Shown here one piece after another: positions 4,757-26,632 of a DNA stretch of 64,000 nucleotides; within the stretch, counting starts at the first letter, position 1, and each line of letters opens with the position of its first letter. Origin of the DNA: Gammaproteobacteria bacterium (GTDB lineage: Bacteria > Pseudomonadota > Gammaproteobacteria > Eutrophobiales > Eutrophobiaceae); contig OZ220714.1 of assembly GCA_965116585.1 (NCBI GenBank), positions 2,309,247 to 2,373,246 on the forward strand, in the 5' to 3' direction. A program made the position numbers and the translations under genes. The notes beneath the pieces are model-generated. The model had not been told where the DNA came from and did not search any database. It saw only the letters and a list, made by a program, of their open reading frames with translations.

Positions 4757-4765
4757 CGAGTGAAA

Positions 4766-7592: not shown

Positions 7593-7733
7593 GCCGGGGG
7601 GTGATTAACCACGACTTGGCAGCGTTATCCTGGGAACTGGTAGTGAAGGCGGGACATTAGCGGCCGATACGAGAAGATTAGACCCGATGAATATTGTCCG
7701 TACGTAGGACAGCAAGATATATTGTGATGACGG

Positions 7734-8108
7734 CTACCATTCGCCCTTCAGAGTTGGTGATTGTCTGGTGTTGTCGTGGTTAACGGCCATTTCCAACTGT
7801 TCGACCAGATCAGGCAGATCGTTCTGTATAGTGTCCCAGAGAATATCGTCGTCGATATTGTGGTAACCATGAACAAGACGATGTCGCATGCCTATGATGT
7901 TATCGAAATCGATATACGCCAGTTCATGTCGTTTTGCTTTTGACACCTGATAGGCCGCTTCACACAGAATTTCTACAAGCCTTACCATTGCCAGCGAATA
8001 CATACGGTCGGAATCCAGATCCTCCCGAGTTTTCCCCTCGCTTAGCTCAATGGCTTCCTGCGCAGCATCCAGCATGTGCAATAGCCGGGTATTATCATCA
8101 ATGAACAT
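7734..8108 (-). CDS. hepT: HepT-like (DUF86) toxin of a HepT/MNT type II toxin-antitoxin pair
   Basis: RX4HXY motif (GMRHRLVHGYHNID), ~124 aa, immediately downstream of an MNT nucleotidyltransferase. Confidence 0.8.
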   Translation of the reverse strand: MFIDDNTRLLHMLDAAQEAIELSEGKTREDLDSDRMYSLAMVRLVEILCEAAYQVSKAKRHELAYIDFDNIIGMRHRLVHGYHNIDDDILWDTIQNDLPDLVEQLEMAVNHDNTRQSPTLKGEW

Positions 8109-8153
8109 AAGTTGTCACGACAGATTCTATCAGGCGGTTAGCAATTCAAGGTT

Positions 8154-8468
8154 TTATGGCGTGGACAAATCGACCAGAATATGTGCATCTTTCACCACCC
8201 TGTCCTGAATATATGGACTCAGATCCCCCATTGTGCGTAAATCAATTTTGCGTTGTCCAAAAAAGAATGACAGGGCTTTTTCCAACCCAACTACTCTGAA
8301 TAGTCCGACTCGAGCGCCAGGTCTGAACTTGACCAACAGATCAATGTCGCTGTCAGGACCGAAATCATTACGCAGCGCTGACCCATACACAGCCAGTTTA
8401 AGGATATCGTTGTTCCGGCAGAACGTTGTAATTTGTTTACTGTCTGGAAGAATCACTTGCGGGTTCAT
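8154..8468 (-). CDS. mnt: MNT nucleotidyltransferase antitoxin (cognate of HepT)
   Basis: GSX10DXD nucleotidyltransferase motif (YGSALRNDFGPDSDIDLLV), 104 aa, upstream of hepT in the same operon. Confidence 0.8.
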   Translation of the reverse strand: MNPQVILPDSKQITTFCRNNDILKLAVYGSALRNDFGPDSDIDLLVKFRPGARVGLFRVVGLEKALSFFFGQRKIDLRTMGDLSPYIQDRVVKDAHILVDLSTP

Positions 8469-8537
8469 GCCTTGCCTGTTTTCGGAATAGTAATATAAGG
8501 ATTTTAACCACGGAGTATTTTATTCGCAATGGACACC

Positions 8538-8656
8538 CTTGGATACCGCTGAGATCTGCTACCATTAACTCCACAAAAAAGAACAGCCGCGTTAGCGGCG
8601 GCTGTCGGGCCGTGGCTCCCTTCCTGTTATGACAAGGTATGGGCATACCAACGGTG
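8538..8656. repeat. Copy 1 of a ~120-170-bp intergenic repeat family (hairpin ACAGCCGC-GTTAGCG-GCGGCTGT preceded by an A-run, plus a TGTCATGACA-like palindrome)
   Basis: Near-identical to 26986..27157 and 13600..13729. Copy 1 diverges after ...CCAACGGTG and abuts the IS66-like insertion. Confidence 0.7.
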
Positions 8657-8794
8657 TTGTTACTTATAACTCAGTATAAGATTTAGCGCCGTGTCAAGGA
8701 AAAAACAGGAAAAATTGTAACTACTCACCCCCTCCCCACTAATTCTACCTGAATTTGCAACAAGGGGTGCTTGACATCATAGTTTTCTGGCGCT

Positions 8795-9472
8795 ATGGTA
8801 GGCGCCATGGGGCATGCGTATCTCGGTTCGAAAGCGACGACGGGGCTGTGCCAACCGTTGATTGCCATGATGCCGCCGCACAGTGTGTACATTGAGACAC
8901 ACTTGGGCGGCGGGGCGATTATGCGGCGCAAGCCGGCGGCGCTGCGCAACATTGGCATTGACATGGATGGGCGGGCGCTGTCGGCGTTCGAGTGTGCGTA
9001 TCCGGTGGAGCTGGTGCAGGGGTGTTGCCACCGGTTTTTAGCGGACTTTCCGTTCGACGGCACGGAGCTGGTGTACAGCGACCCGCCGTATTTGCAGCGT
9101 GCCCGCAAGTCGGGGCGGGGTTATCGGCACGACTACGAGGAGGGCGACCACGAGGCCTTGCTGGCGCTGCTCACGGGGTTGCCGTGTGCGGTGATGCTAT
9201 CGGGGTATCCCTCGGCGTTGTATGACGAGCGGTTGTGTGGCTGGCGCTGCGTGTCGCTGCAGGTGATGAATCAGGCCGGGGTGGTCACGGAGAAGGTATG
9301 GTTCAACTTTGCCCCGGACCGGGTGCACTGGGTGCGTTATGCGGGGCGCAACTTCACGCACCGCCAGCAGGTCAAGCGCAAGGCGGCGAGCTGGGGCCGG
9401 CGGTATCGGGAGTTGCCGCCGGCGGAGCGCCTGGCGGTGCTGGCGGCGATGATGGCGGTGGAGGCGGAGTGA
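8795..9472 (+). CDS. Dam-family N6-adenine DNA methyltransferase (cargo of the IS66-like element)
   Basis: HLGGGAIM (AdoMet-binding FxGxG) followed by the YSDPPY catalytic motif, the D12-class order. The stop lies 4 bp before the transposase start. Confidence 0.75.
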   Translation: MVGAMGHAYLGSKATTGLCQPLIAMMPPHSVYIETHLGGGAIMRRKPAALRNIGIDMDGRALSAFECAYPVELVQGCCHRFLADFPFDGTELVYSDPPYLQRARKSGRGYRHDYEEGDHEALLALLTGLPCAVMLSGYPSALYDERLCGWRCVSLQVMNQAGVVTEKVWFNFAPDRVHWVRYAGRNFTHRQQVKRKAASWGRRYRELPPAERLAVLAAMMAVEAE

Positions 9473-9476
9473 GGGC

Positions 9477-10976
9477 ATGGCGAGCGTGAACAAGACCTCG
9501 CTGCGCACGGAGTTCGAGGCCATCAAGACGCGCTTTGCGGCGCTGTGTGCGGAGGGCAAGCTGAGTCCCGAGGGCCGCGCCCTGTTCGAGGCGATGCTGC
9601 TGCTGTTCGAGTTGCTGCTGGCGGTGTTGATGGAGAAGGCCACGCCGAAGGGAACGCATAACTCGGGCCTGCCGAGTTCCCAAACCGGGCCGGACGAGAC
9701 CGCACGCCGGCAGACCGGCGCCAAGGGCAAGGGGCCGGACCACCGTGCCGCACGGGGCGAGTCAACCCGCGTGGTGGTCGAGACCCGCACCGCCGCGGTC
9801 ACCGAGTGCCGGGCCTGCGGGCGCGACCTCAAGGACCTCCACCCCAGCGGCCACGAGCGGCGCGTGAAGGTCGATATCGTCTTCGAGACAACCGAACTGA
9901 CCGTGAAGGCCGACATCAAGACCTGCCCGCGCTGCCGTACCGAGACCCGCGGGCCGTTTCCGGACACGATGCCGGGCCCCTTGCAGTACGGCCACGGCAT
10001 CGTGGCCTTCGCCACGCACCTGCTCACCGCACAGATGCTCTCACTGCGGCGCGCCGCTCAGACCCTCAAGGCGCTGACCGGGCGCACCATCGCCGAGGCG
10101 ACCTTGCTGGCTTGGCTCTCACGCCTGCACGAGGCCCTGGCCGAGTGGGAGGGGGCCGCCATTGAGCGCCTGCTCGCCGAGCCGGTGCTGCACGCCGATG
10201 AAACCGGCCTGCGCATCGACCGTAAGACCCACTGGCTGCACAGCGTCAGCGCCGGGAACCTGACCGTAAAGCGCGGCCACCGCAAACGGGGCCGCGAGGC
10301 CCTCAAGGACATCGGCATCGTCCCCCGCTATGGCGGTATCCTCGTCCACGACCGCTGGGCCAGCTACTTCGCCTGGGAGAACTGTGAACACGCCCTGTGC
10401 GGCAGCCACCTGCTGCGCGACCTGGCCTTCATCGAAGAGGCCCACGGCCATACCTGGGCAACACGTCTGGGCAACCTCCTGCTCACTACCTGCCGCACCG
10501 TGCGTGACCACCCGAACAAAGCGCTCAGCGACCCCGACTACAAAGCCCTGCGCACACGCTACCGCACCCTCCTCACACAGGCCAGACGGGAACTCCCCAC
10601 ACCCCCTCAGCGTCTCACCGGACAACGCGGACGTATCGCCAAATCCGATGCGCAAAACCTGCATGAAGCCCTCGTCAAGTATGAAACCGACGTGCTGCGC
10701 TTCGCCCGCAACCCCCAGGTCCCGTTCACCAATAACCGCGCCGAGCGCGACCTCCGCATGGCCAAGGTCAAGCAGAAAGTCGCCGGGTGCTTCCGTACCC
10801 CCCACTACGCCGCCGCCTACTGCCGCATCTCCAGCTACTTGCAGTCCATGGCGCTGCAGGGCTACAATCCCCTCACCGCCATCGAGATAGCGCTCAACGG
10901 CAATGCCGCCTCCATGGTAGAGAAACCACCCCAGAATAACCCGGACGACCAGGACCAGGATAAGGGGGGCGAGTAG
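9477..10976 (+). CDS. IS66 family transposase (TnpC-like: zinc ribbon plus DDE domain)
   Basis: CRACGRDL...CPRCRT zinc-finger; ...HADETGLRI...WLHSV... and ...FTNNRAERDLRMAKVKQKVAGCFRT... are IS66 TnpC signature blocks. Confidence 0.9.
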   Translation: MASVNKTSLRTEFEAIKTRFAALCAEGKLSPEGRALFEAMLLLFELLLAVLMEKATPKGTHNSGLPSSQTGPDETARRQTGAKGKGPDHRAARGESTRVVVETRTAAVTECRACGRDLKDLHPSGHERRVKVDIVFETTELTVKADIKTCPRCRTETRGPFPDTMPGPLQYGHGIVAFATHLLTAQMLSLRRAAQTLKALTGRTIAEATLLAWLSRLHEALAEWEGAAIERLLAEPVLHADETGLRIDRKTHWLHSVSAGNLTVKRGHRKRGREALKDIGIVPRYGGILVHDRWASYFAWENCEHALCGSHLLRDLAFIEEAHGHTWATRLGNLLLTTCRTVRDHPNKALSDPDYKALRTRYRTLLTQARRELPTPPQRLTGQRGRIAKSDAQNLHEALVKYETDVLRFARNPQVPFTNNRAERDLRMAKVKQKVAGCFRTPHYAAAYCRISSYLQSMALQGYNPLTAIEIALNGNAASMVEKPPQNNPDDQDQDKGGE

Positions 10977-11036
10977 TTACGAAAAATTTTAATTTGAGTA
11001 GTAATTTAGCTTCACCATGTAGCGCGAGGTGCAACT

Positions 11037-11297
11037 ATGGTAGCCTTTGAAAATCTCTTAAAAACAGAGTCCGATTTCTATGAACGTGAGCAACACAATC
11101 TTTTGGTAAAGTACCCCAACAGGGTTTTGTTAATACACGGTGATCATGTTGAAGGGGATTTTGATTCCGGGAATGCGGCCATATCAGAAGGAGTTCGCAA
11201 GTTTGGTACAGGTCCGTTTTTAGCCAGGAGAGCCGGGGAAGAAGAGCCTGTTTTTTTCAGTGCCAGCATTAACGTTGAGTCTGTAAAATGTCGGTAA
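11037..11297 (+). CDS. 86-aa conserved hypothetical protein (paralog A of the 23007..23267 protein)
   Basis: ~80% aa identity with the ORF at 23007..23267. The ~30 bp upstream (…GTAGCGCGAGGTGCAACTATGG) is also conserved in both copies. No recognisable domain. Confidence 0.6.
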   Translation: MVAFENLLKTESDFYEREQHNLLVKYPNRVLLIHGDHVEGDFDSGNAAISEGVRKFGTGPFLARRAGEEEPVFFSASINVESVKCR

Positions 11298-11352
11298 GAG
11301 TGCAACGGACAGCATTAATCTGGCGATACAGGAAGAATTGGCTGCCAGGTAC

Positions 11353-12447
11353 TTATTTGTTGGATTTCCTGCGATTGCAACCCTTGCATAGCATCTGACA
11401 GTTATCCTCGTTTGTCTTGCCACCCTCCGACCAAGGGGTGATGTGGTCAGCCTCCATGTCCACGATCTCAAACACCTTTGCGCATACCTTGCATATCCCC
11501 TTTTGAATCTCGAACGTCCTCTGCTTCATGGCATCGGAGAAGGCTCGGATGTTGAGATGTTTTTCCTCGCCAGTGAGGAGATACGGGTAGATACCCGCCT
11601 TCTTCGTCACATCGTCGTCGATCATCAGGCGGCCAACCTCGACTTCCAGTCTTTCGGGATCCAGTTTCTCGTTCTTGAGTTGCTTGTAAAGCCCACCCCA
11701 ATCCACTCCCTTCATTTGTGTGCGGTAGTTCGGAAAAACCGCCTCCACCCGGTTGATCACCGCCTGGAAGTGACTCCACAAAGCAGTTGCGGTCTTGTCG
11801 TGCTGATGCACGGCCATATACTGCTCGACCGCCTGGTCCTCGTCCTTGATCCATTGGATTGCGGTTTCGAGGTACTCCTGGCGGTCCGCCCTCCCATTCA
11901 CATAACGGCTGCCGATTGCATAAGCCGGGCAGGTGGCCCCCTTCCTGCTGAAATGCCGCTTTGCATCGGATACCCACGGGCCAGCATAAACCGCGTTCCG
12001 CAACTCCTGGTCGGTCAGCCGCTCGCCTGCAATATTGATGATCCTGAACCAAGCCAGCTTTTCGCTGGCGCTTCCCTCGCAGACATAAACCTGCAACGTG
12101 TAGTTAAGAATCCGATCCTGCTCGTCATCTTGCAGGTTATGGAAATACCGCCCGTCAAGGGAGTAGTCGCCTTCCACATACTGTGCGACTGAGATCGTGC
12201 GCTGCTGGCCGTCGATGACCTCATATGTTCCGTCTTCGCGTAGTGCCCAATACATCACATTGAGCGGAAAGCCCTTGTTGATCGTCTCGATCACAGCATC
12301 GCGTTGCTTGTCCTTATAGACGAACTCGCGCTGAAACGGCGGGCGGATGTCGAGTTTACCGCCATAGCCGCGCACCCCGCCTTCGCCGTCGTCGATGTAG
12401 CCCTTCACAAGGTCGCGGACAGTGACTTTCGTCAGAGCAATTTTCAT
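11353..12447 (-). CDS. DUF262 (ParB-like, DGQQR) N-terminal domain fused to a C-terminal HNH endonuclease
   Basis: EVIDGQQRT is the DUF262 motif. The C-terminus HITPWSEGGKTNEDNCQMLCKGCNRRKSN is an HNH motif. A 4-bp overlap with the upstream MTase gene indicates co-transcription. Confidence 0.75.
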   Translation of the reverse strand: MKIALTKVTVRDLVKGYIDDGEGGVRGYGGKLDIRPPFQREFVYKDKQRDAVIETINKGFPLNVMYWALREDGTYEVIDGQQRTISVAQYVEGDYSLDGRYFHNLQDDEQDRILNYTLQVYVCEGSASEKLAWFRIINIAGERLTDQELRNAVYAGPWVSDAKRHFSRKGATCPAYAIGSRYVNGRADRQEYLETAIQWIKDEDQAVEQYMAVHQHDKTATALWSHFQAVINRVEAVFPNYRTQMKGVDWGGLYKQLKNEKLDPERLEVEVGRLMIDDDVTKKAGIYPYLLTGEEKHLNIRAFSDAMKQRTFEIQKGICKVCAKVFEIVDMEADHITPWSEGGKTNEDNCQMLCKGCNRRKSNK

Positions 12448-13505
12448 CGCGACGGCATTCTCTTAATCAGAATGCGTCTATAGGTGCGTTTGTATTGGCC
12501 TCCCACCTTGATAACCCCTCCTTCCCCGTTCAGGTCGTTATAGTTAGTCGCATCTGCGGACGTGTATTTTTTCGTTTTCAGGCCGTAGCGGTCGTCCCTG
12601 TCTGTTATCCCCATGACTTCAAACTGCCCCGGGTTGTGCTTATCCAGAAACGTAATCGGCACCCCCATCGCCCCGTCCCAATCTATCGGGATTTCGGCGG
12701 TCTTGTCCACGTTGATCGCGTCGTAGTTGTCGTAGGCCGGGTATTCCTCCGGCGAGTAGAGCTTGTAGAGGATCAACTCCTCGTGGCGCTTGGCATGGTC
12801 GAGATTGGTGAACCAGGCCGCGTTGCCCAATCGTCCTTTGATAACTCCCTCGACAACTCTGTAGGCGCTCCCCTCCTTTGCGGTCGCCTCCAATTCCCGC
12901 GCGTATCCCTCCGGCACATCGAACAGCATGTCTTGGCCCTTCGGGGTGACGCCAAGCCACATCGTGCCGTCCTTGATTAGGGGGAAAATCTCCTTGTAGG
13001 TGACGGCGTTCTGACTCCCGACGATCAGGAACTTCTTGCCGTACTGCACCAGTTGGGCGACGTATTCGCGGAACAGCGAAAACGGCGGATTGGTCACCAC
13101 GATGTCCGCCTGCTTCAGAAGCTCAATGCACTCCGCGCTGCGGAAATCGCCGTCCCCCTCAAACTCCCGAATTCCGATATCCCCGACTTCTGGCACCCTG
13201 CCGCCCTTCGCGTTCCCCTTGTATTCGAGCCATATCGCCCGCTCCGAATCGTGACGGCTGAACAAGTCACGTTCCTGGTTCCTGTAGCACGCGGTGATGA
13301 GCGTCTTCAGACCCAGGCGCTCAAAGTTGTATGAGAAATAATGAAAGAAGTTGGAGACGCGGGGGTCGTCGCAGTTACAGTACACAACCTTGTCCCGGAA
13401 ATGTCCAGTGTAGTGGCGCAGCTCGTTTTCGATATCGGAAAGCTGCGTGTAGAACTCGTCGTTCTTTTGCCGTTTGGCGTTGCGTAAGTTTTCATTCAGA
13501 GACAT
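12444..13505 (-). CDS. Adenine-specific DNA methyltransferase, EcoRI-methylase-like family
   Basis: N-terminal ...NDEFYTQLSDIENEL...VVYCNCDDPRVSNFFHYF... block and NPPF catalytic motif (VVTNPPFSL). The family assignment is from memory of M.EcoRI-like sequences. Confidence 0.65.
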   Translation of the reverse strand: MSLNENLRNAKRQKNDEFYTQLSDIENELRHYTGHFRDKVVYCNCDDPRVSNFFHYFSYNFERLGLKTLITACYRNQERDLFSRHDSERAIWLEYKGNAKGGRVPEVGDIGIREFEGDGDFRSAECIELLKQADIVVTNPPFSLFREYVAQLVQYGKKFLIVGSQNAVTYKEIFPLIKDGTMWLGVTPKGQDMLFDVPEGYARELEATAKEGSAYRVVEGVIKGRLGNAAWFTNLDHAKRHEELILYKLYSPEEYPAYDNYDAINVDKTAEIPIDWDGAMGVPITFLDKHNPGQFEVMGITDRDDRYGLKTKKYTSADATNYNDLNGEGGVIKVGGQYKRTYRRILIKRMPSR

Positions 13506-13599
13506 GGGTTTGCTCCCGAACCAAGCCCGTTGTCGACGACTAGCTCCCGAGATTTATACCGCCCCAAACTTCGATACTCTACTACACAATTCCCCAAAA

Positions 13600-13729
13600 A
13601 AAGAACAGCCGCGTTAGCGGCGGCTGTCGGGCCGTGGCTCCCTCCTGTCATGACAAGGCATGGGCACACCAACGGTGAGGTTGAGCAAAGTCTATTATAA
13701 CACCCGACACTGTGTCAATGATTTGAATC
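13600..13729. repeat. Copy 2 of the intergenic repeat family
   Basis: ...CCCCAAAAAAAGAACAGCCGCGTTAGCGGCGGCTGTCGGGCCGTGGCTCCC...GTCAATGATTTGAATC is almost identical to 27020..27157. Confidence 0.7.
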
Positions 13730-13832
13730 GGCCTTGCGGTTGCTTTGTTTCCTCTCTCATCTTCCCTCATCTGCTGTTATTAACTTGTAAATCACGGTAT
13801 AATCTATTGTAATCCTTTTCTGGAATCTGTAT

Positions 13833-14837
13833 ATGTACTCAAATCGAATTTCATTCTACAAACAACTGGAGGATGCCAGACAGTCTAAGGTGCTGGCGTA
13901 TATCACAGGTGACCGGCGCCAATTAGAGACAAAAATGGCTGCGGAGGTTCTAGACTTCTTTGTCCATCATCTTGACAAGATTGGTGTTGTTGGAAAGCTT
14001 TCTCTATTTCTTTATACCCGTGGTGGGGATACTTTATCAGCTTGGAGCCTCGTTAATTTGTTACGTGCTTTTTGCGATAAGCTAGAGATTATCATTCCTT
14101 CAAAAAGCCATAGTGCCGGAACGTTAGTTTGTCTGGGAGCGGATATATTAGTTATGACTAAACAAGCCACTTTGGGTCCTATTGATCCAAGTGTAAATAC
14201 ACCTCTGAATCCTCAAGTTCCGGGTGGACAACCTATGGCAAATGTACCAGTGAGTGTTGAAGATATTAACGCTTTCCTTGAGCATGCCCGAGAAACAGTT
14301 GGTGTGGGCACTCAACCAAACATCGGTACTGTCTTTGATAGACTTGCGCAAAATGTTCATCCTCTCGTTCTTGGAAGCGCCTTTCGAGCGCGCTCACAGA
14401 TTCGCATGTTGGGAAGCAGGCTCCTTGCTAACCACATGGATAATGAAGATGGTATGAATAAAATCCTGGATTTTTTGTGCAGCGAATCTGGCAGCCATGA
14501 CTACACAATAAACAGAAGAGAAGCTCGAGATGATCTATCCTTACCTATTGAGAAACCAAGCTGGGAACTTTACGAAATAATCAAAACTCTGTATGACGAT
14601 ATTGCCTCAGAATTAGAACTGACTACCGCCTATGATCCAAACTTGGTCTTGGGAGGTTCACAAACTAAGAATTATTCATTTACGCGAGCACTGATTGAGA
14701 GCGCGGGGGGTGGTTCAGATGCTTTCTTAAGTGAGGGGGTTCTCAGTCGCCAACAGATTCAAATTCAGCCAGGTGTTGTAGGAGATGCTATCAACGACCA
14801 ACGTCAGTTTGAAGGATGGAGACATCGTGATGCCTAA
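13833..14837 (+). CDS. SDH-family / ClpP-fold (S49-like) serine protease homolog
   Basis: ...LSLFLYTRGGDTLSAWSLVNLLRAF...PSKSHSAGTLVCLGADILVMTKQATLGPIDP... is a ClpP/crotonase-fold protease core with a Ser nucleophile context. Confidence 0.55.
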   Translation: MYSNRISFYKQLEDARQSKVLAYITGDRRQLETKMAAEVLDFFVHHLDKIGVVGKLSLFLYTRGGDTLSAWSLVNLLRAFCDKLEIIIPSKSHSAGTLVCLGADILVMTKQATLGPIDPSVNTPLNPQVPGGQPMANVPVSVEDINAFLEHARETVGVGTQPNIGTVFDRLAQNVHPLVLGSAFRARSQIRMLGSRLLANHMDNEDGMNKILDFLCSESGSHDYTINRREARDDLSLPIEKPSWELYEIIKTLYDDIASELELTTAYDPNLVLGGSQTKNYSFTRALIESAGGGSDAFLSEGVLSRQQIQIQPGVVGDAINDQRQFEGWRHRDA

Positions 14838-15075
14838 CATCGATAATCCACATCTATCTGTCAAATTAACCCAAGCTAGCGGTATGACCCCGAGCATAGC
14901 AGAAGACACAATCGCGACCGATAACCTTTCTGCTATGATGAAAAATGCTATTGTCATTTTTCAGTCAACACTTACTTTAATTGACTCTCCTTCCCAATAT
15001 CAGAGTGAAGATGGGACTGCTGAAAGGGCTAAAGATTTCGATACAAGTACAAAGCCTCAGATATCAGAGGGGTAG
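14830..15075 (+). CDS. Small hypothetical protein (81 aa), start overlapping the protease stop
   Basis: ORF only; ATG at 14830 overlaps 14837. No known domain; it may be spurious. Confidence 0.25.
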   Translation: MPNIDNPHLSVKLTQASGMTPSIAEDTIATDNLSAMMKNAIVIFQSTLTLIDSPSQYQSEDGTAERAKDFDTSTKPQISEG

Positions 15076-15085
15076 GTATCTCTGA

Positions 15086-15299
15086 CTAGTACTCTTTCAA
15101 TTTAATTCTGACCGGTTAGCTTGTCATAAGCGGTTCACTCCAACGATACTGACCAGCCCAAAGAAACGGTACCAGATGTAAAGTGAGGGATCAGCATTAT
15201 GCCGCCTTTTTTCTTTCTTTTCGATATCTGTCAGCAAACGCCACCACTCGATTAATCTTGACCCGTCGATCAATCAGAATTAAATTGAAAGAGTACTAG
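15086..15299. mobile_element. MITE-like element: 25-bp perfect terminal inverted repeats flanking ~164 bp
   Basis: CTAGTACTCTTTCAATTTAATTCTG (15086..15110) is the exact reverse complement of 15275..15299. It sits between two convergent gene ends; the right inverted repeat overlaps the stop codon of the NACHT gene. Confidence 0.5.
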
Positions 15300-18200
15300 T
15301 GTGGCAAACGAATCTCGCGGAATGCCTCACCGAGCTGAAGTGCCACACTTCGCCGGTCACCCATGTCGACAAGTATGTCGAGGATATGTAAGAACTTCTG
15401 AGCCAAAGCCAGCGCCATTGGCGCGTCACGATGTACAAAGTGTTGTATCATCTCCGCTATGCGCTCCGGGATGAACGTTCCATACCAACCCTTTAGGTTG
15501 TCGGGTCCATCGCCGATAATTGCGAGCACCTGATCCGCGAAGGCTTCGGCTGGGTAGTCGGCCCTGGCTCGCTCACAGAGCGTCAAGAACGGGTCCATAA
15601 CGGAAGCTGCCCATCCGCCAGCGCGAACGAAACGATCAATCAGCGGCAGGATGCGGCTGATTTCGGACCAGTCGCCGTTGACGTAGCGAGTGGCCAGGTC
15701 CGCGCGTTCGACTGAGACAAACATTAACGTGCGAACAAGTTTGGGCAGATCGAAGCCATAGAGATTTCCTCTCCGGTAGCCGTTTTTCTGTAAGGCTGGG
15801 GCTTGCAGAAGCCGGTCAAGACAAAGGTCCAGCGTCGCGACTGCATCCTCTGGGACTACCGGCGCATCGTACACGTAGGAGCAGATGTAAGTATCTACGA
15901 ATGGAGAGAGAAGATCCCAGCAATTGTCACCCTCGATCCCCAATATTGGGTCGAGGAAACGGGCCTGAAAATCACTAAGAGGTAGAAGGCCGACCACCTG
16001 GCCGAGTGCCGACCCGAGGGCGTGGGTCCATTCAAAGCTCTCGGTTGCCGAACGATCTCGACGTCCGGGCTTCATCCAAGGCGGCACATTCTTCTGATTG
16101 GTCCAGTCGAGAACCCCTGTCAGAAAGTTGAGGAGTGCGCTTTTTGCGCTACTGCTTAGGGCCCCGTCGAAGGGGATGCGCTCCAAAATTTCCGCCGCCC
16201 GCTTTGAGTACCAATAGACATCCGGTTCACCCCATACTTCATCTGCGTCGACCGTATCATCTGCATCGTACTCTACAAATCTTTGACACCCACTTCGACC
16301 CTTCCCGGGTTTGACCTTCATCCAGGCCGGAGGCGGTAGCGGAAGGGGCACCCATCCGCTACCGTTTTGATAGAACGCAACCGCCACATCGACCGCCGCT
16401 TGCGCTTCACTTGACGAGTGGAGCGCTTCATTGTGTTGCCTAAGTTGGCCACGCGGCCGCGGAGGAATATGACAGAGCGAAAATGCCAAGATCAGCGCGG
16501 CCCAAGTGAGCTTGGGGTCCTTAGACCAAAGCCTGCACGCTTCTTCGAGCGCAGCTAACGAAACGGCTTCGAGTGGATGCGCAATCAGCCCAAGGAGGTC
16601 GTGAGCTGTGCCCTGTTCGGCTGTGCCTTCGTGGAGGTCCGCTGCGAAGCCTCGCGCTACGTAGATCGCGTGGTGCCATGGGATGACGGAACCAGGCGGC
16701 CACGTCTGACCAGGCTTTTCTGGTAAACGGATAGCGCGTGCCAGGACATCTCGAGACCACTCAAGGTTTTCTTGTGTGCATCGCTCGCGAAAGTTAAGCG
16801 TGATTGCCGCGGTAGCGGCGACTGCGCCACGACGCATACCCGATAGTTCTTCTTCGTCCTCGTCGTCCAGGTGCCTGAACAAGTCGCGGGAGTCCGCTTC
16901 CTTGGCCAATGCTATGGCCCCTTCGACCGTGTAGGTATCGCTCAGTGTCTTCTTCTCGAATGACTTGGAGGCCCAAGTCCAAAGGTTTGTCTGGGCAAGA
17001 CGCTTAGACGCCCCTTCGGCTCTGGTAACGTTTTCAGGCTTAGCAGCAGAAGGACTAACATGGACAACCGCAACCTGGTCCGAATCCTCTTTGGTGCGGT
17101 AAACCTGATAGTTTTCCGGGTCAACTAACTCTGCATATTCCAAGGCCTGAGATGTAAGGTCCTCGCGTGCCTCCAGAATGTCGCGGTGCTCTTCGTACTG
17201 GTAGGGCAAATCGTTCTTAAAATTGAGGACCGCTTCGCGGACCCGGTGGCGGAGCGGTGCCGTCCCAAAGAAAAACATAGGTACCATCCAGCTAAGCTGT
17301 TTGTTACGGACTGGTCTGGCATTTGCTGCTTGGATCGCCTCAATGTGGTGATTATCGTTGCTATTCGTAAAACCGATCAGGTTATTCGTTGACGAAAAGT
17401 CTTGTACCATTCGGTTACGGTCTGCAGTCAACAGTCGTTGTGAGGTAACGAGGGGAAAAGTCGCTTCGCACACCGTCTCGGTATCGAGCGCAAGCATCGA
17501 CGCGATGCCCAGGATGGCGATGCATTCATTCCCTTCTACGATTTGCTGGATCAGTTCATCTACGGCGCGGTTACGCTCAAGCTCGGTGAAGCACCACTCT
17601 TCAAGCGCCATAAACCCGCAACCGATGGCTGCCGGCGCCCACGTTGAACGAAACCAAAGATATTCCCGATCAGTGCCCCAGAACTTTTGGGTGTCCCAGG
17701 GAAACGTCAGTTCGAGTGGTACGGGGGTGCCGCGACGGTCGGGTGAGTGACGATGCAGTTGTCGCCACGCAATCATCGCGTGATTGCAGAGCTCTCGAAG
17801 AAGCCGCAGTGCGTCGTTGGGCGATGATTGGAAAAGCGAGTGAAAGGGCTCTCGAAGCGGTGAAGCATTCGGGAAGCATCGGTGGTCGTCGTGGACCGAC
17901 AGCCTGTTCCAGTCGTGGTGGCTGAAATTGCCGACGGTTCGTAGGGAAAGCGCCCCCGAAAGCGCGATTTCATCTTGACGCGAGCGCTCGGCGTCCGGCT
18001 TGGCAAGAGCTGCTTTGCGCCAGTCAGCCGCATCATGTTGTTCCTGCTTCTCGCGGGCAACTCGCTCGTCCGGAAGCTCCCTTCGCAGGAACGCCAGTGA
18101 AAGCTTAACCACCGGCTGGGGTAATGACTGGGCGAGGACGGGTGAGAAGGTGATGATGTCATGAAATACCTCGTCGCGGATTTGCTTTGAGCTGATTGCT

Positions 18201-20680
18201 CGCTGCAAATAGTTGGCTGCAAGGGCAGGCTCGGCTCTCGATGATCTCAGTAGAAGCTGTCCAAGAGATTTTCGGAAAGCATCCAGGTCGGATACCTTCG
18301 CCCAGTAAGCAGAGTTCTCATCAGGCCCATCGGCGGTACTGATCGCGTCGATGGCGGCGAGCCAGGTAGCGCACTGTTGCAGAAGAGCGCGGGACGTTGG
18401 GTTGCGAATGTCGGCCAGGATATTCTGCCAGACATCGAAGACAGCCACGATCTCCGGATAAAGCCTCTGCGGAATGCCTGAAATGCGTCGAAGGATAAAG
18501 TCGATTAGGCGACGCCACGCGGAGAGGTCGGAAGGCCATCCGAGAAAATAGGCAATCCGTTGTCGTTGCTCTAGTGGATACTCCCCAGAAAGGATCATTT
18601 CATTCGGGGTAGTCTTCTCAGCCTGAAACCAGACGAGCGTCTTCCTGAAAAGGTAGAAGTCATTGGCAAAGACGGCCATCGCGAATTGATCCTCATCAAC
18701 TTCAAACCTCGCAGTTCCGAAAGGACCCACCAGCCAGGCTCGCAACCATTGTGATCTTAGACCTGAATCCCCAGCTTGGGCGAGGTACACTGGCCAGTCT
18801 GCTCCATGTGCATACTCCCATTGGGAAGCGAGTTCGACGACGCGCGCGACCGCTGGTGGTTCGCCGCAGTCCTTGATCACTTCTATCCATTGTGGCCCGC
18901 GATCGGCAAGGACGTGGAAGAAGGCCCATTCAAAGAAGATATCGTGGGCGAAACGGACGGAGATCCCTTCGCGGACATTCAGGAGTATGCCGTCCGATCT
19001 CAGGTCATTGATGTATGTAACGGAGTTGAGTTGGCCAAGGCCAATCGGTTGGCTAAGTTGACGGGCATGAACACGCGCTAAGTTGAGCAGCGCGCGTTGG
19101 CGTTCAATTGCGCGTTGGCCTGTTTCATTGTAGCCGCCCCGTCGCCACCAATTCTCGATCAGATCGATTTCAGATTGTGGAGCGAATGTCGAAGTGCTGG
19201 GGTCGGCTACGTAACCCTGGTTCAGCACCTTCGCGAAAAAGGGTCGTCGGACAATCTCTATCACCTGCGCTGGTCCAAACAGAAGTGGCTTGAGGTGTGG
19301 TTTGGCTTTTGCAAGCGTGTCTGCTTCGTCGTCGCTCAGCTGACCAACGACAAGCGTCTCGACCTTCAGCGCATCAAGGAAGTTACCCAACCAATTACGA
19401 AGCATTTCAATGCCGGTGTCGCGAAGGGAGACAACGACGCGCCAGTTATCGAGTAACGGTGACTCCACGATGGTGCGGACCACATCAATGATGATGGGCT
19501 GGTGCTCATTATTGATGCGATCAATTGCATCAATGAAGAGTATGGGAGTACCGGCAGCCGCAATCTCCAGGAGAAGGTGCTCCAAGGAGGTACCCGAAAG
19601 ACCCTGCGAGGCAGCGTAGCTGGTCCAGCTGGTGCCTTCGAGTTGTTCGGCTTTGAGGAAGAGGACCGGTCCGTGTTCTAACGCGCGCTGTAATGTCCGC
19701 TTTACTACAACTGATTTACCGCTTCCGGGTAGACCGCGCACCTGGACGACACGAGCAGTTGTGAGTTTTGCGTCCAGTTCCTCAAGGAGTGAGGCTCGGT
19801 CGAGCTTCATGCCTCCGATATCATCCGGGATGAGGGTTGCATAGCTCATTGCAAGCTCTGTCAGCTTGTCGAGGTCGGGGCGCAATGAGATCGAGCCGCA
19901 AAGGCGTGCGATTGGTGAAATCAAGCGCACAAGCCGCGCGCGATCAAATTGGCCTGACTTGCCTGCTGATGCGCGGGCTAGTTGAACGAACCGCGACCAG
20001 ATGAGAGGCGCCTTGGCTGTATCATCGGGCGCAAGGCAATCTCGAATGCGATTAATGGCATTAGGGGGATCCGTGGCGCCTTCACGAAGGAAGTCGAACT
20101 GAATGAGCACGAAGTGCGCGAGAAAATGATGCACTTCCTCAGATGTGCATGGTGTCCCCTTCGATTCTTCCAGTAAGGCAACGATGTCATTTTTGACGGC
20201 TTTGATGCCGCCCCTGGCATTGCCCCCCTTTGCAAAGCGAGCGTCGAAATGGTCTGCCGTCAGACTTTCACGAGCCCAATCACAAAGGGTCTTGAGCGCT
20301 CGCTCTTTGGCAGGGGAGATCGTGCCAACTGCAGCGCCGTAACGGTCGGCACTGACGCGGAAGTCAGACTTTCCAAGAGTAGCCCAACTGTCGAGAATGA
20401 TGCCGCGAAAGTGTTTGTTCGTTATTGCATTGCTGATCGTGAGCGAACGCTTTACTTGTAGGCTGAGGCGGGCAGGCTTTTTTTCGGCGTCTTCAAAGTC
20501 AATAATTACATCATCGAGAGGTTCGCCGAAGTCGCGCTGCTGAACTGACACACTGACAACGGTTCGATCATCCATGCCGGGGGCATACTCTTCGGCAAGA
20601 AGCGCGGTGAGATAAAACGCAGCCACATCTCCTTCAAAGGTGAAACCCTCGCCGCCAGCGAGTTCAGGTGATTGTTTCAT
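15296..20680 (-). CDS. 1794-aa NACHT/STAND-type P-loop NTPase with an N-terminal PD-(D/E)xK-like nuclease domain and a long helical C-terminal region (Avs / bacterial-NACHT-like antiphage protein)
   Basis: Walker A VRGLPGSGKSVVV. NACHT-type Walker B PILFIDAIDRI (hhhhDxhD). N-terminal GFTFEGDVAAFYL...VIIDFED...LSLQVKRS resembles Cap4/Mrr-like D...(E/Q)xK nucleases. About 1300 aa of the C-terminus is alpha-helical and W/L-rich. Confidence 0.6.
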   Translation of the reverse strand: MKQSPELAGGEGFTFEGDVAAFYLTALLAEEYAPGMDDRTVVSVSVQQRDFGEPLDDVIIDFEDAEKKPARLSLQVKRSLTISNAITNKHFRGIILDSWATLGKSDFRVSADRYGAAVGTISPAKERALKTLCDWARESLTADHFDARFAKGGNARGGIKAVKNDIVALLEESKGTPCTSEEVHHFLAHFVLIQFDFLREGATDPPNAINRIRDCLAPDDTAKAPLIWSRFVQLARASAGKSGQFDRARLVRLISPIARLCGSISLRPDLDKLTELAMSYATLIPDDIGGMKLDRASLLEELDAKLTTARVVQVRGLPGSGKSVVVKRTLQRALEHGPVLFLKAEQLEGTSWTSYAASQGLSGTSLEHLLLEIAAAGTPILFIDAIDRINNEHQPIIIDVVRTIVESPLLDNWRVVVSLRDTGIEMLRNWLGNFLDALKVETLVVGQLSDDEADTLAKAKPHLKPLLFGPAQVIEIVRRPFFAKVLNQGYVADPSTSTFAPQSEIDLIENWWRRGGYNETGQRAIERQRALLNLARVHARQLSQPIGLGQLNSVTYINDLRSDGILLNVREGISVRFAHDIFFEWAFFHVLADRGPQWIEVIKDCGEPPAVARVVELASQWEYAHGADWPVYLAQAGDSGLRSQWLRAWLVGPFGTARFEVDEDQFAMAVFANDFYLFRKTLVWFQAEKTTPNEMILSGEYPLEQRQRIAYFLGWPSDLSAWRRLIDFILRRISGIPQRLYPEIVAVFDVWQNILADIRNPTSRALLQQCATWLAAIDAISTADGPDENSAYWAKVSDLDAFRKSLGQLLLRSSRAEPALAANYLQRAISSKQIRDEVFHDIITFSPVLAQSLPQPVVKLSLAFLRRELPDERVAREKQEQHDAADWRKAALAKPDAERSRQDEIALSGALSLRTVGNFSHHDWNRLSVHDDHRCFPNASPLREPFHSLFQSSPNDALRLLRELCNHAMIAWRQLHRHSPDRRGTPVPLELTFPWDTQKFWGTDREYLWFRSTWAPAAIGCGFMALEEWCFTELERNRAVDELIQQIVEGNECIAILGIASMLALDTETVCEATFPLVTSQRLLTADRNRMVQDFSSTNNLIGFTNSNDNHHIEAIQAANARPVRNKQLSWMVPMFFFGTAPLRHRVREAVLNFKNDLPYQYEEHRDILEAREDLTSQALEYAELVDPENYQVYRTKEDSDQVAVVHVSPSAAKPENVTRAEGASKRLAQTNLWTWASKSFEKKTLSDTYTVEGAIALAKEADSRDLFRHLDDEDEEELSGMRRGAVAATAAITLNFRERCTQENLEWSRDVLARAIRLPEKPGQTWPPGSVIPWHHAIYVARGFAADLHEGTAEQGTAHDLLGLIAHPLEAVSLAALEEACRLWSKDPKLTWAALILAFSLCHIPPRPRGQLRQHNEALHSSSEAQAAVDVAVAFYQNGSGWVPLPLPPPAWMKVKPGKGRSGCQRFVEYDADDTVDADEVWGEPDVYWYSKRAAEILERIPFDGALSSSAKSALLNFLTGVLDWTNQKNVPPWMKPGRRDRSATESFEWTHALGSALGQVVGLLPLSDFQARFLDPILGIEGDNCWDLLSPFVDTYICSYVYDAPVVPEDAVATLDLCLDRLLQAPALQKNGYRRGNLYGFDLPKLVRTLMFVSVERADLATRYVNGDWSEISRILPLIDRFVRAGGWAASVMDPFLTLCERARADYPAEAFADQVLAIIGDGPDNLKGWYGTFIPERIAEMIQHFVHRDAPMALALAQKFLHILDILVDMGDRRSVALQLGEAFREIRLPH

Positions 20681-20782
20681 CGCTAGCTTGAGTCTCGTGA
20701 GTAAACATCAGTCGTGGGAGCGATTGAGATAGATTATGCGCCGAGAATGGACTGCGGGCAATGAAGGATTAAATTCATAACT

Positions 20783-20996
20783 CGGCGAAATGCCCGACAT
20801 CGAGGTAGAACACATCGAAACCCCCACCAAAGCCACCCAACTAGGCGCCAAAGGCTGCGGCGAAGCCGGCATCATCGCCATCTGCGGCGCCATCATGAAC
20901 GGGATTAACGATGCGCTGGAACCGTTCGGGGCGGAGGTGACTTCACAGCCGTTTACGCCGGAGAAGATATTGAGGGTGTTGGGGAAGGTTGGTTAG
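20783..20996 (+). repeat. Right copy of the 214-bp direct repeat; orphan 3' fragment of the CoxL-like gene; putative attR
   Basis: Encodes MPDIEVEHIETPTKATQLGAKGCGEAGIIAICGAIMNGINDALEPFGAEVTSQPFTPEKILRVLGKVG, the last 68 aa of the CoxL-like protein with 3 substitutions. Confidence 0.85.
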
Positions 20997-21122
20997 TTCC
21001 CGGGTTTGCTTACCTGCTCCTTTTGCTGCCTAACCTTCTGGGTGCGGCACAACGTGTTGATTTTTCCTGGCCATTTTGGACTCCATGAGTTTATTTTAGT
21101 TGAATAACCACAATTTTTTGCT

Positions 21123-21149
21123 AATATTTCAACCATAGATTGAAATATT
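21123..21149. promoter_or_regulatory. Inverted repeat (AATATTTCAA-N-TTGAAATATT) in the promoter region of the HTH-ImmA gene; putative operator
   Basis: Perfect 9-10-bp arms in an AT-rich region ~45 bp upstream of a GGAGG ribosome-binding site and the ATG at 21197. Confidence 0.35.
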
Positions 21150-21196
21150 GCATTAATTATTGTGAATATCAACCACATTAATAAAGGAGGAAAACC

Positions 21197-22276
21197 ATGT
21201 TTGGACAAAGACTCAGATTAGCGCGAAAGAAGGCTGGGTTATCAATGCAGGCCCTTGCAAACAGCGTTATACCCAAAGTTAGCGCACAAGCAATCAGCAA
21301 ATATGAGGCGGAAAAGATGATGCCTTCTTCAGCGGTGCTGGTCGGACTAAGCAAAACGCTTGGCGTGTCCATTGACTTCCTCATGGGAGGGCAAGTCGAA
21401 ACCCTGAAAGGTGTCGAGTTCCGCAAACATTCCGGCACCTCGGCACGAGATCGCGCCCGCGTCGAAGCAATTGTGACTGAAAAGGTCGAAGACTATCTGG
21501 CAATTGAAGACATTCTGGAACTGGTTCCGCTTGCCAATCCCTTTGGCGATCTGGTGACCGATGAGATTGAGAGTATCGAGTACGTTGATGACATGGCCCG
21601 GGCTTTGCGGGAGAAATGGCTGCTGGGACTGGATCCAATTCCCAGCATGTCTGCGCTGCTGGAAGATAAGGGGATTAAAGTTATCGAAGCGGATCTACCG
21701 GATCGTTTCGACGGAATGGCTTGTGATGTAAAGCGTAGTGAGGGCAGACCTGACACGGCAGTCGTCGTTGTGTCCAATCGTACTAATATTGAACGCAAAC
21801 GATTTACTCTCGCCCATGAACTCGCACACAGAGTCATTCGCTCGACTGGTAATCCAGGTATCAATCTTGAAAAAGCCATGAACCGCTTCGCAGGTGCATT
21901 TCTTGTACCAAGCGAACATTTAGTCAAGGAAGCCGGGGCACATCGGCACGGCATGACTTATCACGAGTTGGTTCGGCTAAAACATCTTTATGGCGTTTCG
22001 GCGGTGGCACTGTTGATGCGGCTTATGCAGGTAGATATTTTGTCAAAAGCGGCGACCGAATATGCCTTCCGCAGCTATGCACGCACTTGGCGAGTTGAAG
22101 AACCTGAGCCGATCCGTAATGATGAGGGCTTTGGCACCTTTGAACGGCCACAGCGTTTCGAGCGACTGGTTTGGTGGGCCTTGGGAGAACACCTGATTTC
22201 GTCTGTACGCGCAGCGCAGTTCTTACGTTTGCCGGTTTCGACTATCGAACAGGAAATTCGAGGGCCACAAGACTGA
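21197..22276 (+). CDS. XRE-family HTH domain fused to an ImmA/IrrE-family (COG2856) zinc metallopeptidase
   Basis: N-terminal HTH (FGQRLRLARKKAGLSMQALANSV...SKYE) and a HEXXH motif (LAHELAHRV). Confidence 0.8.
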   Translation: MFGQRLRLARKKAGLSMQALANSVIPKVSAQAISKYEAEKMMPSSAVLVGLSKTLGVSIDFLMGGQVETLKGVEFRKHSGTSARDRARVEAIVTEKVEDYLAIEDILELVPLANPFGDLVTDEIESIEYVDDMARALREKWLLGLDPIPSMSALLEDKGIKVIEADLPDRFDGMACDVKRSEGRPDTAVVVVSNRTNIERKRFTLAHELAHRVIRSTGNPGINLEKAMNRFAGAFLVPSEHLVKEAGAHRHGMTYHELVRLKHLYGVSAVALLMRLMQVDILSKAATEYAFRSYARTWRVEEPEPIRNDEGFGTFERPQRFERLVWWALGEHLISSVRAAQFLRLPVSTIEQEIRGPQD

Positions 22277-22786
22277 TGACCTGTGTCGCTGTCAATGATG
22301 CGTCTTGTCTGATAGACCTTCGAAAAGGGCAGCTTCTGCATGTTTTGTCGCGCCTGCCTTATCGTTTCATCGTACCGCTACCAATACGTGTGTCAGAATT
22401 ACTTGACTTCACGCCCCAGGAATGGGCAATTCTCGATGGTGGAGGTATGGAAACCTACCGACCTTCCTCCAAAACGGATGGTGGATGTATTCGCACTAAA
22501 GAGGCAACACGGGAGGCTAACAGCTAACGACTGCTTTTGCTTGGTGGCCACACAATGTCACGAGGGAGGAATTCTTCTGACCGGTGATAGTCTTCTGCGC
22601 AAAGTCGCGTCCGAGGTCGGTATTGAAGTCCATGGTGTGCTCTGGGTCATCAAAGAATTTATAGCAGCCGATGTCTGTGATAAGGCGCTTCTGATAAGAG
22701 CTTTAAATATTTGGAAAGACGATGCAACAGTTTTCCTTCCTAAGTCTGAGATCGAACAGCAGTTAAGCGTCCTTCTTTCCTCATGA
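22276..22786 (+). pseudogene. PIN/DUF4411-like nuclease gene interrupted by a +1 frameshift (two overlapping ORFs, 22276..22527 and ~22450..22786)
   Basis: ATG overlaps the upstream stop (TGATG). N-terminal part MTCVAVNDASCLIDL... is in frame 1; C-terminal part ...RLTANDCFCLVATQ...GILLTGDSLL... (PIN-like acidic motif) is in frame 2. The total ~170 codons fit a single PIN gene. Confidence 0.55.
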
Positions 22787-23006
22787 ATGCATTGATTCTG
22801 TCTATCGACAAATAAAACGATTAAAAAGCGACCTTAGGTGATGGCTTCTCTCAGAGGTAAAATAAATTACATAGGGCAATTTAATTCAAAGCAGGTGGCC
22901 CGCTTGGAAAAATTTTTCCTGATTGCTGATTCCGATTTCAACGTGAACGCGGATTCCGGGAAAGTGAACACCGATTTAGCTTGACCACGTAACGCGAGGT
23001 GCAACT

Positions 23007-23267
23007 ATGGCAGCTTTTGAAAATCTCTTAAAAACAGAGTCCGATTTCTACGGACGCGAGCAACACAATCTATTGGCGAAGTACCCCAACAGGGTTTTGT
23101 TGATACACGGTGATCGTGTTGAAGGAGATTTTGATTCCGAGGAAGCGGCAATTACAGAAGGGGTACGCAAGTTTGGCGTAGGTCCGTTTTTAGTCAGGAG
23201 AGCCGGAGAACAAGAACCTGTTTTTTTCAGCGCCAGCATTAGCGTTGGGCCTGTAAAATGTTGGTAA
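23007..23267 (+). CDS. 86-aa conserved hypothetical protein (paralog B)
   Basis: MAAFENLLKTESDFYGREQHNLLAKYPNRVLLIHGDRVEGDFDS... is ~80% identical to the 11037..11297 product. Confidence 0.6.
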   Translation: MAAFENLLKTESDFYGREQHNLLAKYPNRVLLIHGDRVEGDFDSEEAAITEGVRKFGVGPFLVRRAGEQEPVFFSASISVGPVKCW

Positions 23268-23360
23268 GGTGCGACAAGGATCGTTATTGTACACAGAACT
23301 GGATGAACCTAGGTTCAAGGATTATTTACATTATTTTTTTGTCGAAGGAATCTACATAAC

Positions 23361-25322: not shown

Positions 25323-25639
25323 GGTGAGTAGCATCAGTTGGCTGGCTGCTTTTACGCATCTTTAACCGGGTCGGTGGCAGTTTAGAATGAGGAGGTGCGG
25401 TATATTATGGGTCGTCTATCAGGTAGACGTTGAGGCGGATGCCAGCCAGAGGGATTCCGCCAGTCTGGAGAAAAAGTACAGAACGATGGATGTTGGAAGT
25501 GTCGTGTGAAAAGTGTGCAACCGAAAGTCGAGTGGCGTGTTAATATTATTGCAGACACGGCTGGTAATATTTGTGAACGTTCAAAATACTAAGTGATAGC
25601 TCCACGACGGCGTTCCGAACTGAGAGAGAAGAGGCAAAC

Positions 25640-25864
25640 ATGATCACACAACAGAAAAGACCAGAAAAAACTGGAAATTGTTGGTGTGGGTGTGATGAAG
25701 CTACAGATAGTTACTTCATCCCAGGGCATGACGCAATCGCTCGAAACGCACTATTGGAAATCGTCTATGGGAAACGAAAAACAGCTGAAATCCTTGAGAT
25801 GCTCGGTTTTAGCCCATCGAACAGCGTTAGTGCGGCGAGAGATAGAGTACAAAACAAGAAGTAG
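25640..25864 (+). CDS. Small Cys-rich hypothetical protein (74 aa)
   Basis: GNCWCGCDE cysteine cluster; no known domain; low-GC region. Confidence 0.35.
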   Translation: MITQQKRPEKTGNCWCGCDEATDSYFIPGHDAIARNALLEIVYGKRKTAEILEMLGFSPSNSVSAARDRVQNKK

Positions 25865-25897
25865 TACATTCAGCGTATGACAAAGGCTTAGCTGATT

Positions 25898-26560: not shown

Positions 26561-26632
26561 ATGGACTGACAGAGGATAACCCGGAAGAGGATAGGTCGAA
26601 ATCTATGAAAAGCCCACCCCAAGACGGTCCTT

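Follow-up and report, generated by a model that had tools for sequence, protein, structure and literature searches.

A Candidate Small-RNA Gene Repeated in Three Copies Within a Gammaproteobacterial Defence Island

Introduction

Horizontally acquired DNA can carry small RNA genes of its own, as exemplified by the island-encoded Isr RNAs of Salmonella, which are short, non-coding and equipped with their own promoter and rho-independent terminator. In the AbiF/RCd22 and type III systems, a non-coding RNA encoded upstream binds a HEPN-related toxin (PMC12373285, PMC5772629). The antitoxin of HepT is a protein, MntA, which acts by polyadenylylation (PMC7641770). In P. aeruginosa, the core defence hotspots are flanked by the non-coding RNA genes tRNA-Pro and ssrA and grow by addition, mostly without obvious mobility genes, and homologous recombination through conserved flanks has been proposed as a route of their transfer (PMC10250203). 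A search of the full-text literature returned no described RNA tied to HepT-MntA or to the hotspot considered here.

The repeat analyzed in this work occurs three times in a defence island that lies within a stretch of gammaproteobacterial DNA of 64,000 nucleotides, referred to below as the window. A first-pass annotation had suggested that the repeat might be a portable promoter/insulator module, a MITE or a recombination site. The reading favored here is that each repeat is, on balance, probably a stand-alone small-RNA gene on the minus strand, whose product may bind protein. As it presents itself in the DNA, the unit is best filed as an unannotated, narrowly distributed small-RNA-like gene of a defence island that matches no Rfam family. 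Its anatomy, its pattern of conservation, its absence from the syntenic site of relatives and the duplicated anchors of the island are directly observed.

Three Copies of an Intergenic Repeat

Repeat finding and alignment recovered three intergenic copies, almost exactly where the first-pass annotation had placed them: c1 (8537-8661), c2 (13597-13729) and c3 (26986-27157). Copy c1 is 94% identical to positions 26986-27110 of c3 (repeat family D4), c2 is 99% identical to positions 27024-27157 of c3 (D3), and a 47-nt block is 100% identical across all three (D6). The perfect hairpin noted earlier beside an A-run, ACAGCCGC-GTTAGCG-GCGGCTGT, is exact in every copy and occurs exactly three times, and no match to it arose in 100 shuffles with three mismatches tolerated. 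The palindrome-like core is likewise present in all three copies, reading CCTGTCATGACAAGG in c2 and c3 and differing in c1 (CCTGTTATGACAAGG). The further ~70 bp attributed to the second and third copies, ending in GACACTGTGTCAATGATTTGAATC, proved common to c2 and c3 only (c1 is ~64% similar there), and 38 nt past the terminator are common to four copies, namely c1, c3 and those of contigs L006 and L023 (see below). A covariance model built from the family matched c1 (8570-8669, 120 bits), c2 (13592-13690, 116 bits) and c3 (27019-27118, 126 bits), and its scan of the 64-kb window returned no copy beyond these.

The copies had also been said to lie 100-200 bp upstream of plus-strand genes, in agreement with the distances found: 104 nt from the end of c2 to the ATG of the SDH-protease gene (13833), 185 nt from the end of c3 to the ATG of the DUF4143 gene (27342) and, for c1, about 100 nt to the 86-aa gene (11037) prior to the insertion of the IS66 element that now stands between them (8717-10980, 8-bp target duplication GAAAAATT). 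This IS66-family element lies 19 nt from the TTGACA of c1. In L023 (9521-9737), the remnant of an IS66 end, independent of this element and oppositely oriented, abuts the same side of the unit, and a ~230-bp IS66-derived MITE with the duplication CCTTCGGT occupies the same intergenic region in L024 (~7290-7500). The intergenic region of the unit may be a preferred IS66 target.

Other short elements were also encountered. REP-like palindromes, GTCATTCC-N-GGAATCCAGT (ATTCC-N-GGAAT type; D7, D9, I2), form inverted pairs apart from the unit at 3133-3175, 4728-4769, 37488-37597 and 62668-62709; they recall Neisseria dRS3/NIME or REP elements, and a Y1 transposase gene is present in the related contig L025. 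A double-hairpin element, GGCAGCA...TGCTGC followed by GCCTCTAAtttttAGAGGTGCC, is found at 3810-3870 and at unrelated positions in L001 (1-56) and L012 (17291-17339), and is probably another family of small intergenic repeats or terminators. AGGTAYCC-like motifs were considered as terminal inverted repeats of the unit and ruled out, being inconsistent among copies.

Anatomy of the Minus-Strand Unit

Read on the minus strand, each copy consists of TTGACA, an AT-rich hexamer, a few variable bases, a conserved AACC-CACCG, a bulged hairpin and a terminator, in that order (Table 1). The bulged hairpin spans ~45 nt, in which a stem of CCG.UGGU with ACCA-CGG is followed by an internal loop, a stem of CCC with GGG and a variable apical hairpin; three bases then separate it from a 9-bp GC-rich stem-loop that runs into UUCUUUUUU. 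The A-run that precedes this stem-loop on the plus strand corresponds to a hairpin plus TTCTTTTTT on the minus strand, and the rho-independent terminator shape proposed for it was scored by a terminator scan in c1, c2 and c3 (9-bp stem with six G-C pairs, 7-nt loop, CTTTTTT). It was scored on the minus strand only; the plus-strand hairpin has no T-run after it.

Table 1. Positions in the window of the unit, its parts and the surrounding landmarks.
Feature	Position	Strand	Details
Defence island with all three copies	7596..27202	.	19.6 kb, low GC
MNT-HepT sigma-70-like promoter	8501..8529	-	TTGCGA-17-TAAAAT, between c1 terminator and MNT start 8468
c1 whole unit	8537..8699	-	TTGACA 8697-8692, TATACT 8678-8673, RNA body ~8665-8575
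c1 long bulged hairpin	8610..8654	-	basal stem CCG.UGGU / ACCA-CGG, stem CCC/GGG, apical hairpin
c1 intrinsic terminator	8575..8606	-	9-bp stem 8606-8582 + T-run
c1 post-terminator extension	8574-8537	-	also in c3, L006, L023
c2 whole unit	13597..13729	-	TTGACA 13718-13713; -10-like hexamer TATAAT 13699-13694 or TAGACT (18-nt spacer)
c2 long bulged hairpin	13632..13675	-	
c2 intrinsic terminator	13597..13628	-	stem 13628-13604 + T-run
c2 flanks	13730-13801		right flank, common to L006; no post-terminator extension
Duplicated xdh-family 3' end	20783..20995 (to 21006)	+	213 bp, 98% identical to 7379-7591
c3 whole unit	26986..27157	-	TTGACA 27146-27141; -10-like hexamer TATAAT 27127-27122 or TAGACT
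c3 long bulged hairpin	27059..27103	-	
c3 intrinsic terminator	27024..27055	-	stem 27055-27031 + T-run
c3 post-terminator extension	27023-26986	-	
c3 position			45 nt inside right island junction (~27202)

In a promoter scan of the minus strand, TTGACA-18-TAGACT matched 10 of 12 consensus positions in c2 and c3, and c1 failed the scan. The best TATAAT-like hexamer lies only 13 nt from TTGACA and is therefore too close to it for sigma-70, and the alternative hexamer at the 18-nt spacing is weaker. TTGACA and the AT-rich hexamer keep a constant position in all aligned copies and in contig L031, despite a diverged spacer. Moreover, homology among copies and genomes starts in the TTGACA region and stops at the T-run, so that the conserved block coincides with a promoter-to-terminator unit. 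Given its orientation, the conserved promoter-like motif would drive only the ~90-nt hairpin-terminator unit, away from the plus-strand genes. The repeat may thus be described as a small transcription unit, in which an RNA of ~85-95 nt would run from a promoter-like element to a strong rho-independent terminator; we infer that it is transcribed. In the predicted fold of this RNA, a short 5' tail is followed by a bulged hairpin of 45 nt, the tip of which differs among copies. A small conserved ORF was considered on either strand and rejected, since starts and frames are not conserved and c2 carries a 1-nt deletion.

Homologs and Database Searches

Nine copies are known from seven contigs of one narrow clade, three of them in the window and six in six further contigs of uncultured marine Gammaproteobacteria. 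Exact-pattern scans identified true homologs in three GTDB species genomes of uncultured Gammaproteobacteria (L001, L002 and L004); pattern matches in L003 and L005 were discarded as chance matches in coding DNA. A first metagenome scan with a two-block pattern gave no match, and a second yielded one true homolog, contig L006, along with two matches by chance. L023 and the Tara Oceans scaffold L031 were added by walking from MNT homologs. Tara Oceans and sponge-associated assemblies are both among the sources of these contigs, each of which carries one copy in the stretch examined, with differing flanks.

The search of Rfam that had been proposed as a check for a known non-coding RNA matched no family: with Rfam 15 at gathering and at permissive thresholds, neither the window copies nor the homologs were assigned. 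The best scores on the element, 19 bits for mir-6 and 16 bits for Trp_leader, are far under threshold, the homologs gave none, and in the whole window a tRNA alone passes the gathering threshold. BLAST of c3 against plasmid and phage collections found no match, and three scans of viral contigs returned nothing or chance matches only.

Neighboring Genes

Defence or toxin-antitoxin genes surround every copy whose neighborhood could be read. Of the nine copies, five (c1 and those in L001, L006, L023 and L031) are located upstream of, and co-oriented with, an MNT(-HepT) operon, which has its own promoter in most cases, and 92 nt separate c2 from the EcoRI-like methylase operon (MTase/GmrSD-HNH) downstream of it. 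The succession of promoter, RNA, terminator and toxin is that of the type III and AbiF/RCd22 systems (PMC12373285, PMC5772629), and would suit a unit that acts in cis, as a 5' leader or attenuator, or else as a type-III-like RNA antitoxin, from its place upstream of the MNT-HepT (and MTase/GmrSD-HNH) operon; a structured RNA would be made from its promoter, and its terminator would hold down read-through to the toxin or defence genes. The complete sequence invariance of the RNA is also what a protein-binding RNA might display. In line with such a role, a ~90-nt deletion has left L031 (395-442) without the MNT promoter, the shared extension and the last part of the U-tract; the hairpin-terminator stands 22 nt from the MNT start codon there, and the toxin-antitoxin operon is consequently readable only from the promoter of the unit.

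A leader or RNA antitoxin nevertheless appears unlikely. MNT-HepT retains its own promoter downstream of the terminator (Table 1), which is kept in L001, L006, L023 and L024 and partly in L009. Intact MNT-HepT orthologs occur without the unit (L024/L025), showing that it is not an essential antitoxin, and HepT is already served by a protein antitoxin (PMC7641770). No co-oriented gene follows c3, L002 or L004, and still the core of each matches that of c3 at 94-100% identity. A promoterless, co-oriented gene, which a cis-leader would always have downstream, is found only in L031. Additionally, no alternative anti-terminator pairing is evident, and the RNA has no tandem repeats, unlike ToxI. Each site holds a single unit, and the genes downstream are MNT/HepT or MTase, not of the ToxN/AbiQ type. 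Complementarity to targets within the window, assessed by k-mer complementarity and duplex folding, did not exceed background, a point that counts against the small-RNA reading itself. The promoter of MNT itself, the orthologs without the unit, the protein antitoxin and the copies with no gene downstream together favor a stand-alone small RNA, one independent of its neighbors in that the genes beside it differ among copies and MNT has a promoter of its own.

Regarding the plus-strand side, L009, L010, L012 and L024 have the DUF4143 gene with all of its upstream region (27203-27341) but not the repeat. MNT-HepT likewise occurs without it in L024/L025, and the methylase module of L023 has no copy of its own. 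The unit is therefore no promoter module for plus-strand genes, and a promoter cassette for DUF4143 was ruled out on the same grounds. Of the portable promoter/insulator module that had been suggested, portability is borne out by the six other contigs with their different flanks; a promoter for plus-strand genes is contradicted both by this distribution and by the opposite direction of the conserved motif. The DUF4143 upstream region also contains a tandem direct repeat of ACCTTGTATTTTTGACA (27249-27265 and 27282-27298), both copies of which are kept in L009, L010, L024 and L031 and only the second in L012. This repeat probably serves the DUF4143 gene as an operator or promoter element and is independent of the small-RNA unit.

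The Defence Island and Its Hotspot

Comparison with L009 and L010 places the island (Table 1) between the stop of an xdh-family large-subunit gene and the DUF4143 promoter region. Its cargo includes HepT/MNT, an EcoRI-like methylase with GmrSD-HNH and an SDH-type protease, together with an Avs4-like 1794-aa protein, an RmrA-like HTH-M78 protein and a HEC-05 GmrSD. The PDC-S01/DUF4143 ATPase gene lies directly past the right junction, and its promoter region (27203-27341) belongs to the conserved flank. In the four closest relatives (L009-L012; xdh large subunit 97%, 91%, 88% and 87% identical) the element is absent within 10 kb, for which reason a conserved chromosomal core gene downstream of xdh was ruled out. 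The island itself is missing in L009 and L010, the relatives with 97% and 91% identity in xdh; in L010, 58 nt separate the xdh stop from the DUF4143 promoter region. The same hotspot holds CBASS, RM, AbiL or HicAB in related contigs (L028, L023, L006, L009).

The unit appears to be at home in the intergenic stretch that separates the minus-strand MNT-HepT operon from the plus-strand DUF4143 (PDC-S01) gene, in a hotspot downstream of the xdh-family operon that would be shared by a clade of uncultured marine Gammaproteobacteria. The simple state is seen in L031, where DUF4143, the unit and MNT follow one another, and L024 has the same locus without the unit, the IS66-derived MITE being in its place. 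In L006, the right flank of c2 is joined to the left flank of c1 across the unit.

Within the island, several sequences are duplicated. The 3' end of the xdh-family gene recurs (Table 1), and the resulting 213-bp direct repeats flank a 13.2-kb segment; this looks like the scar of a single-crossover (Campbell-type) insertion of a second hotspot allele. An xdh fragment with a nearly identical truncation point is present in L023. A protein C-terminus remnant, D5 (LGTGSEGGTLAAD...), which matches the end of a 1148-aa SNF2/NOV_C protein intact in L001, occurs twice in the window (7625-7737, with an in-frame stop, and 26631-26743) and also in L002 (3540-3600) and L001 (1071-1184). The 86-aa gene is likewise found twice (11004-11298 and 22974-23268, 88% DNA identity) and again in L006 (924-1133). 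It has the motif KYPNRVLLIHGDxVEGDFDS... and recurs in different defence modules; no match to the 86-aa, 148-aa and 220-aa ORFs was found in Pfam, NCBIfam or PADLOC.

Judging by these duplications, the repeated xdh 3' end marks what would be the seam of two stacked alleles, Y (7593-20782) and X (20783-27202). The latter segment may represent a complete hotspot allele, composed of the xdh 3' end, cargo, D5, the unit and the DUF4143 flank, and the former a second allele, brought in by one crossover within the xdh 3' end. Alternative hotspot alleles, each with its unit, would then have been stacked by homologous (Campbell-type or unequal) recombination, and the window would hold three copies because the stacked alleles bore the unit. 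Gene conversion may afterwards have kept c2 and c3 at 99% identity, and would explain why this identity has sharp borders. Stacking and shuffling of alleles by homologous recombination is the simplest reading of these arrangements, as a reconstruction of their history. It is plausible that the unit is one of several homology patches for ordinary homologous recombination.

A more specific role in DNA exchange, in which the repeat is an att/attC-like recombination site or a protein-binding site that shuffles defence cassettes, is improbable. The copies do lie at the junctions of island modules, and the L006 arrangement shows such flanks brought together across the unit. The stems, furthermore, are invariant even beside diverged flanks, as would fit a sequence-specific DNA site, the bulged hairpin with its variable tip superficially resembles a folded attC, and an imperfect 9-bp repeat, GTGGAKYTA (7/9), brackets c3 plus 45 nt. 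It is a site-specific recombination site that finds no support. Among the island ORFs there is no integrase, IntI or tyrosine recombinase; the ends do not read RYYYAAC...GTTRRRY, and the GTT/AAC polarity is opposite to that of attC. The cassettes are large and face both directions, and every copy is full length, whereas integration into an RNA gene would be expected to leave 3' fragments. Many module and inter-allele junctions fall elsewhere, as in L023, where MNT is fused directly to the MTase upstream region in the absence of the repeat. The limits of the conserved block coincide with a transcription unit (promoter-like motif and terminator), and the G·U pairs of the fold become A·C mismatches on the other strand; these pairs and the one-sided U-tract favor a minus-strand RNA over a DNA hairpin. 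An att duplication generated by an integrase was ruled out in view of the absence of an integrase and the completeness of all three copies from promoter to terminator.

Conservation and Predicted Fold

With the apical hairpin left out, the homologs aligned all share a 70-nt core with c3 at 94-100% identity, and the promoter spacer at the same loci shows only 46-86% identity. Neighboring coding DNA is 78% identical for MNT/HepT (against L001) and 81-86% for xdh. One architecture suits all nine copies, and the seven that were folded singly all adopt it (RNAalifold and single-sequence folds). The core columns that vary avoid the paired positions (0/38 paired vs 5/15 unpaired; Fisher p=0.001). One pair of the apical stem is U·G in six copies, C-G in L031 and U-A in L001, and the unrelated apical sequences of L002 and L004 still form hairpins when folded. 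A covariation test was not significant because 19 of the 24 pairs never vary; in no pair have both partners changed, and shuffles score as high as the real alignment. The z-scores for folding are mostly weak (-0.1 to -1.8), reaching -3.5 for L004 only. Given the covariation result and these z-scores, the bulged-hairpin RNA structure is treated as a predicted fold that is plausible, not proven.

This pattern bears on whether the unit could be a non-functional relic, that is, one ancestral intergenic region that was segmentally duplicated and is conserved by recency alone. All copies are traceable to one hotspot, c2 and c3 are nearly identical, and the island holds other duplicated fragments (the xdh 3' end, D5 and the 86-aa gene), all of which would agree with such an origin. 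Recency alone is nonetheless a doubtful explanation, with little chance of being correct: within the same locus, the core is 94-97% identical against 46-77% for the adjoining promoter spacer and 78-86% for nearby genes, substitutions stay out of the paired positions, and orthologs persist in seven contigs, including the Tara Oceans and sponge-associated assemblies.

That the repeat is a MITE, as first suggested, or another small transposable element would be in keeping with a non-coding length of 130-220 bp, the occurrence in more than one context and the repeated IS66-family insertions beside the unit, but is very improbable, as the unit has neither terminal inverted repeats nor a consistent target duplication, its window copies are confined to one locus and not dispersed, each other contig has one copy per stretch examined, and the conserved block ends at the promoter-like motif and the terminator.

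Discussion

Collectively, these observations argue for the stand-alone small-RNA gene. Its RNA would act alone, in trans or by binding protein, and its near-complete sequence invariance makes a protein-binding RNA possible. A bolder proposal, quite unlikely to hold as it stands, is that the unit encodes a new class of protein-binding RNA of defence hotspots. In its most specific form, the RNA would serve as a regulator or auxiliary antitoxin of the HEPN RNase HepT, or of another effector of the island, and could act in trans from the orphan copies. The parallels would be RCd22 with AbiF and ToxI with ToxN, except that the RNA would belong to a type VII HepT-MntA module.

If transcribed, the unit would represent a new RNA family tied to a phage-defence hotspot and often to HepT-MNT modules, with uncultured marine and sponge-associated Gammaproteobacteria as its hosts. 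The near-invariant 70-nt core suggests a specific molecular partner. The locus also illustrates clearly the way in which a defence island lacking mobility genes may grow by the stacking of hotspot alleles, leaving behind duplicated anchors in the form of a core-gene 3' end, the small-RNA unit and gene remnants.

Among described elements, MITEs and REP/BIME repeats share with the unit that they are short, non-coding, repeated and intergenic, but the unit has no inverted-repeat ends or target duplications, and its copies are very few and undispersed. Likewise, integron attC sites are repeated elements of ~100 nt at cassette borders that form a bulged hairpin with a variable tip; the unit differs from them in having no R''/R' core sites, IntI or attI, in the size and direction of the island cassettes (1-13 kb, both directions) and in carrying a promoter-like motif and a terminator.

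The type III and AbiF/RCd22 systems also combine a promoter, a conserved structured RNA and a terminator with a toxin operon that encodes a HEPN-fold RNase. In contrast to these, the unit has no tandem repeats and no Rfam match to the abiF motif or ToxI, and the MNT-HepT operon has its own promoter and exists without the RNA (L024). Compared with the Isr RNAs of Salmonella, there is no relationship in sequence or Rfam family, and the unit is unusually invariant and present in several copies within one island; the resemblance is that of a short non-coding unit with a terminator and a predicted promoter of its own, lying in horizontally acquired DNA between divergent or tandem protein genes. Finally, in comparison with the P. 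aeruginosa hotspots, the unit is accessory, is located inside the variable region, is absent in close relatives and shows no integrase-type partial duplication, but in both cases a non-coding RNA gene, here a candidate, is tied to a defence hotspot.
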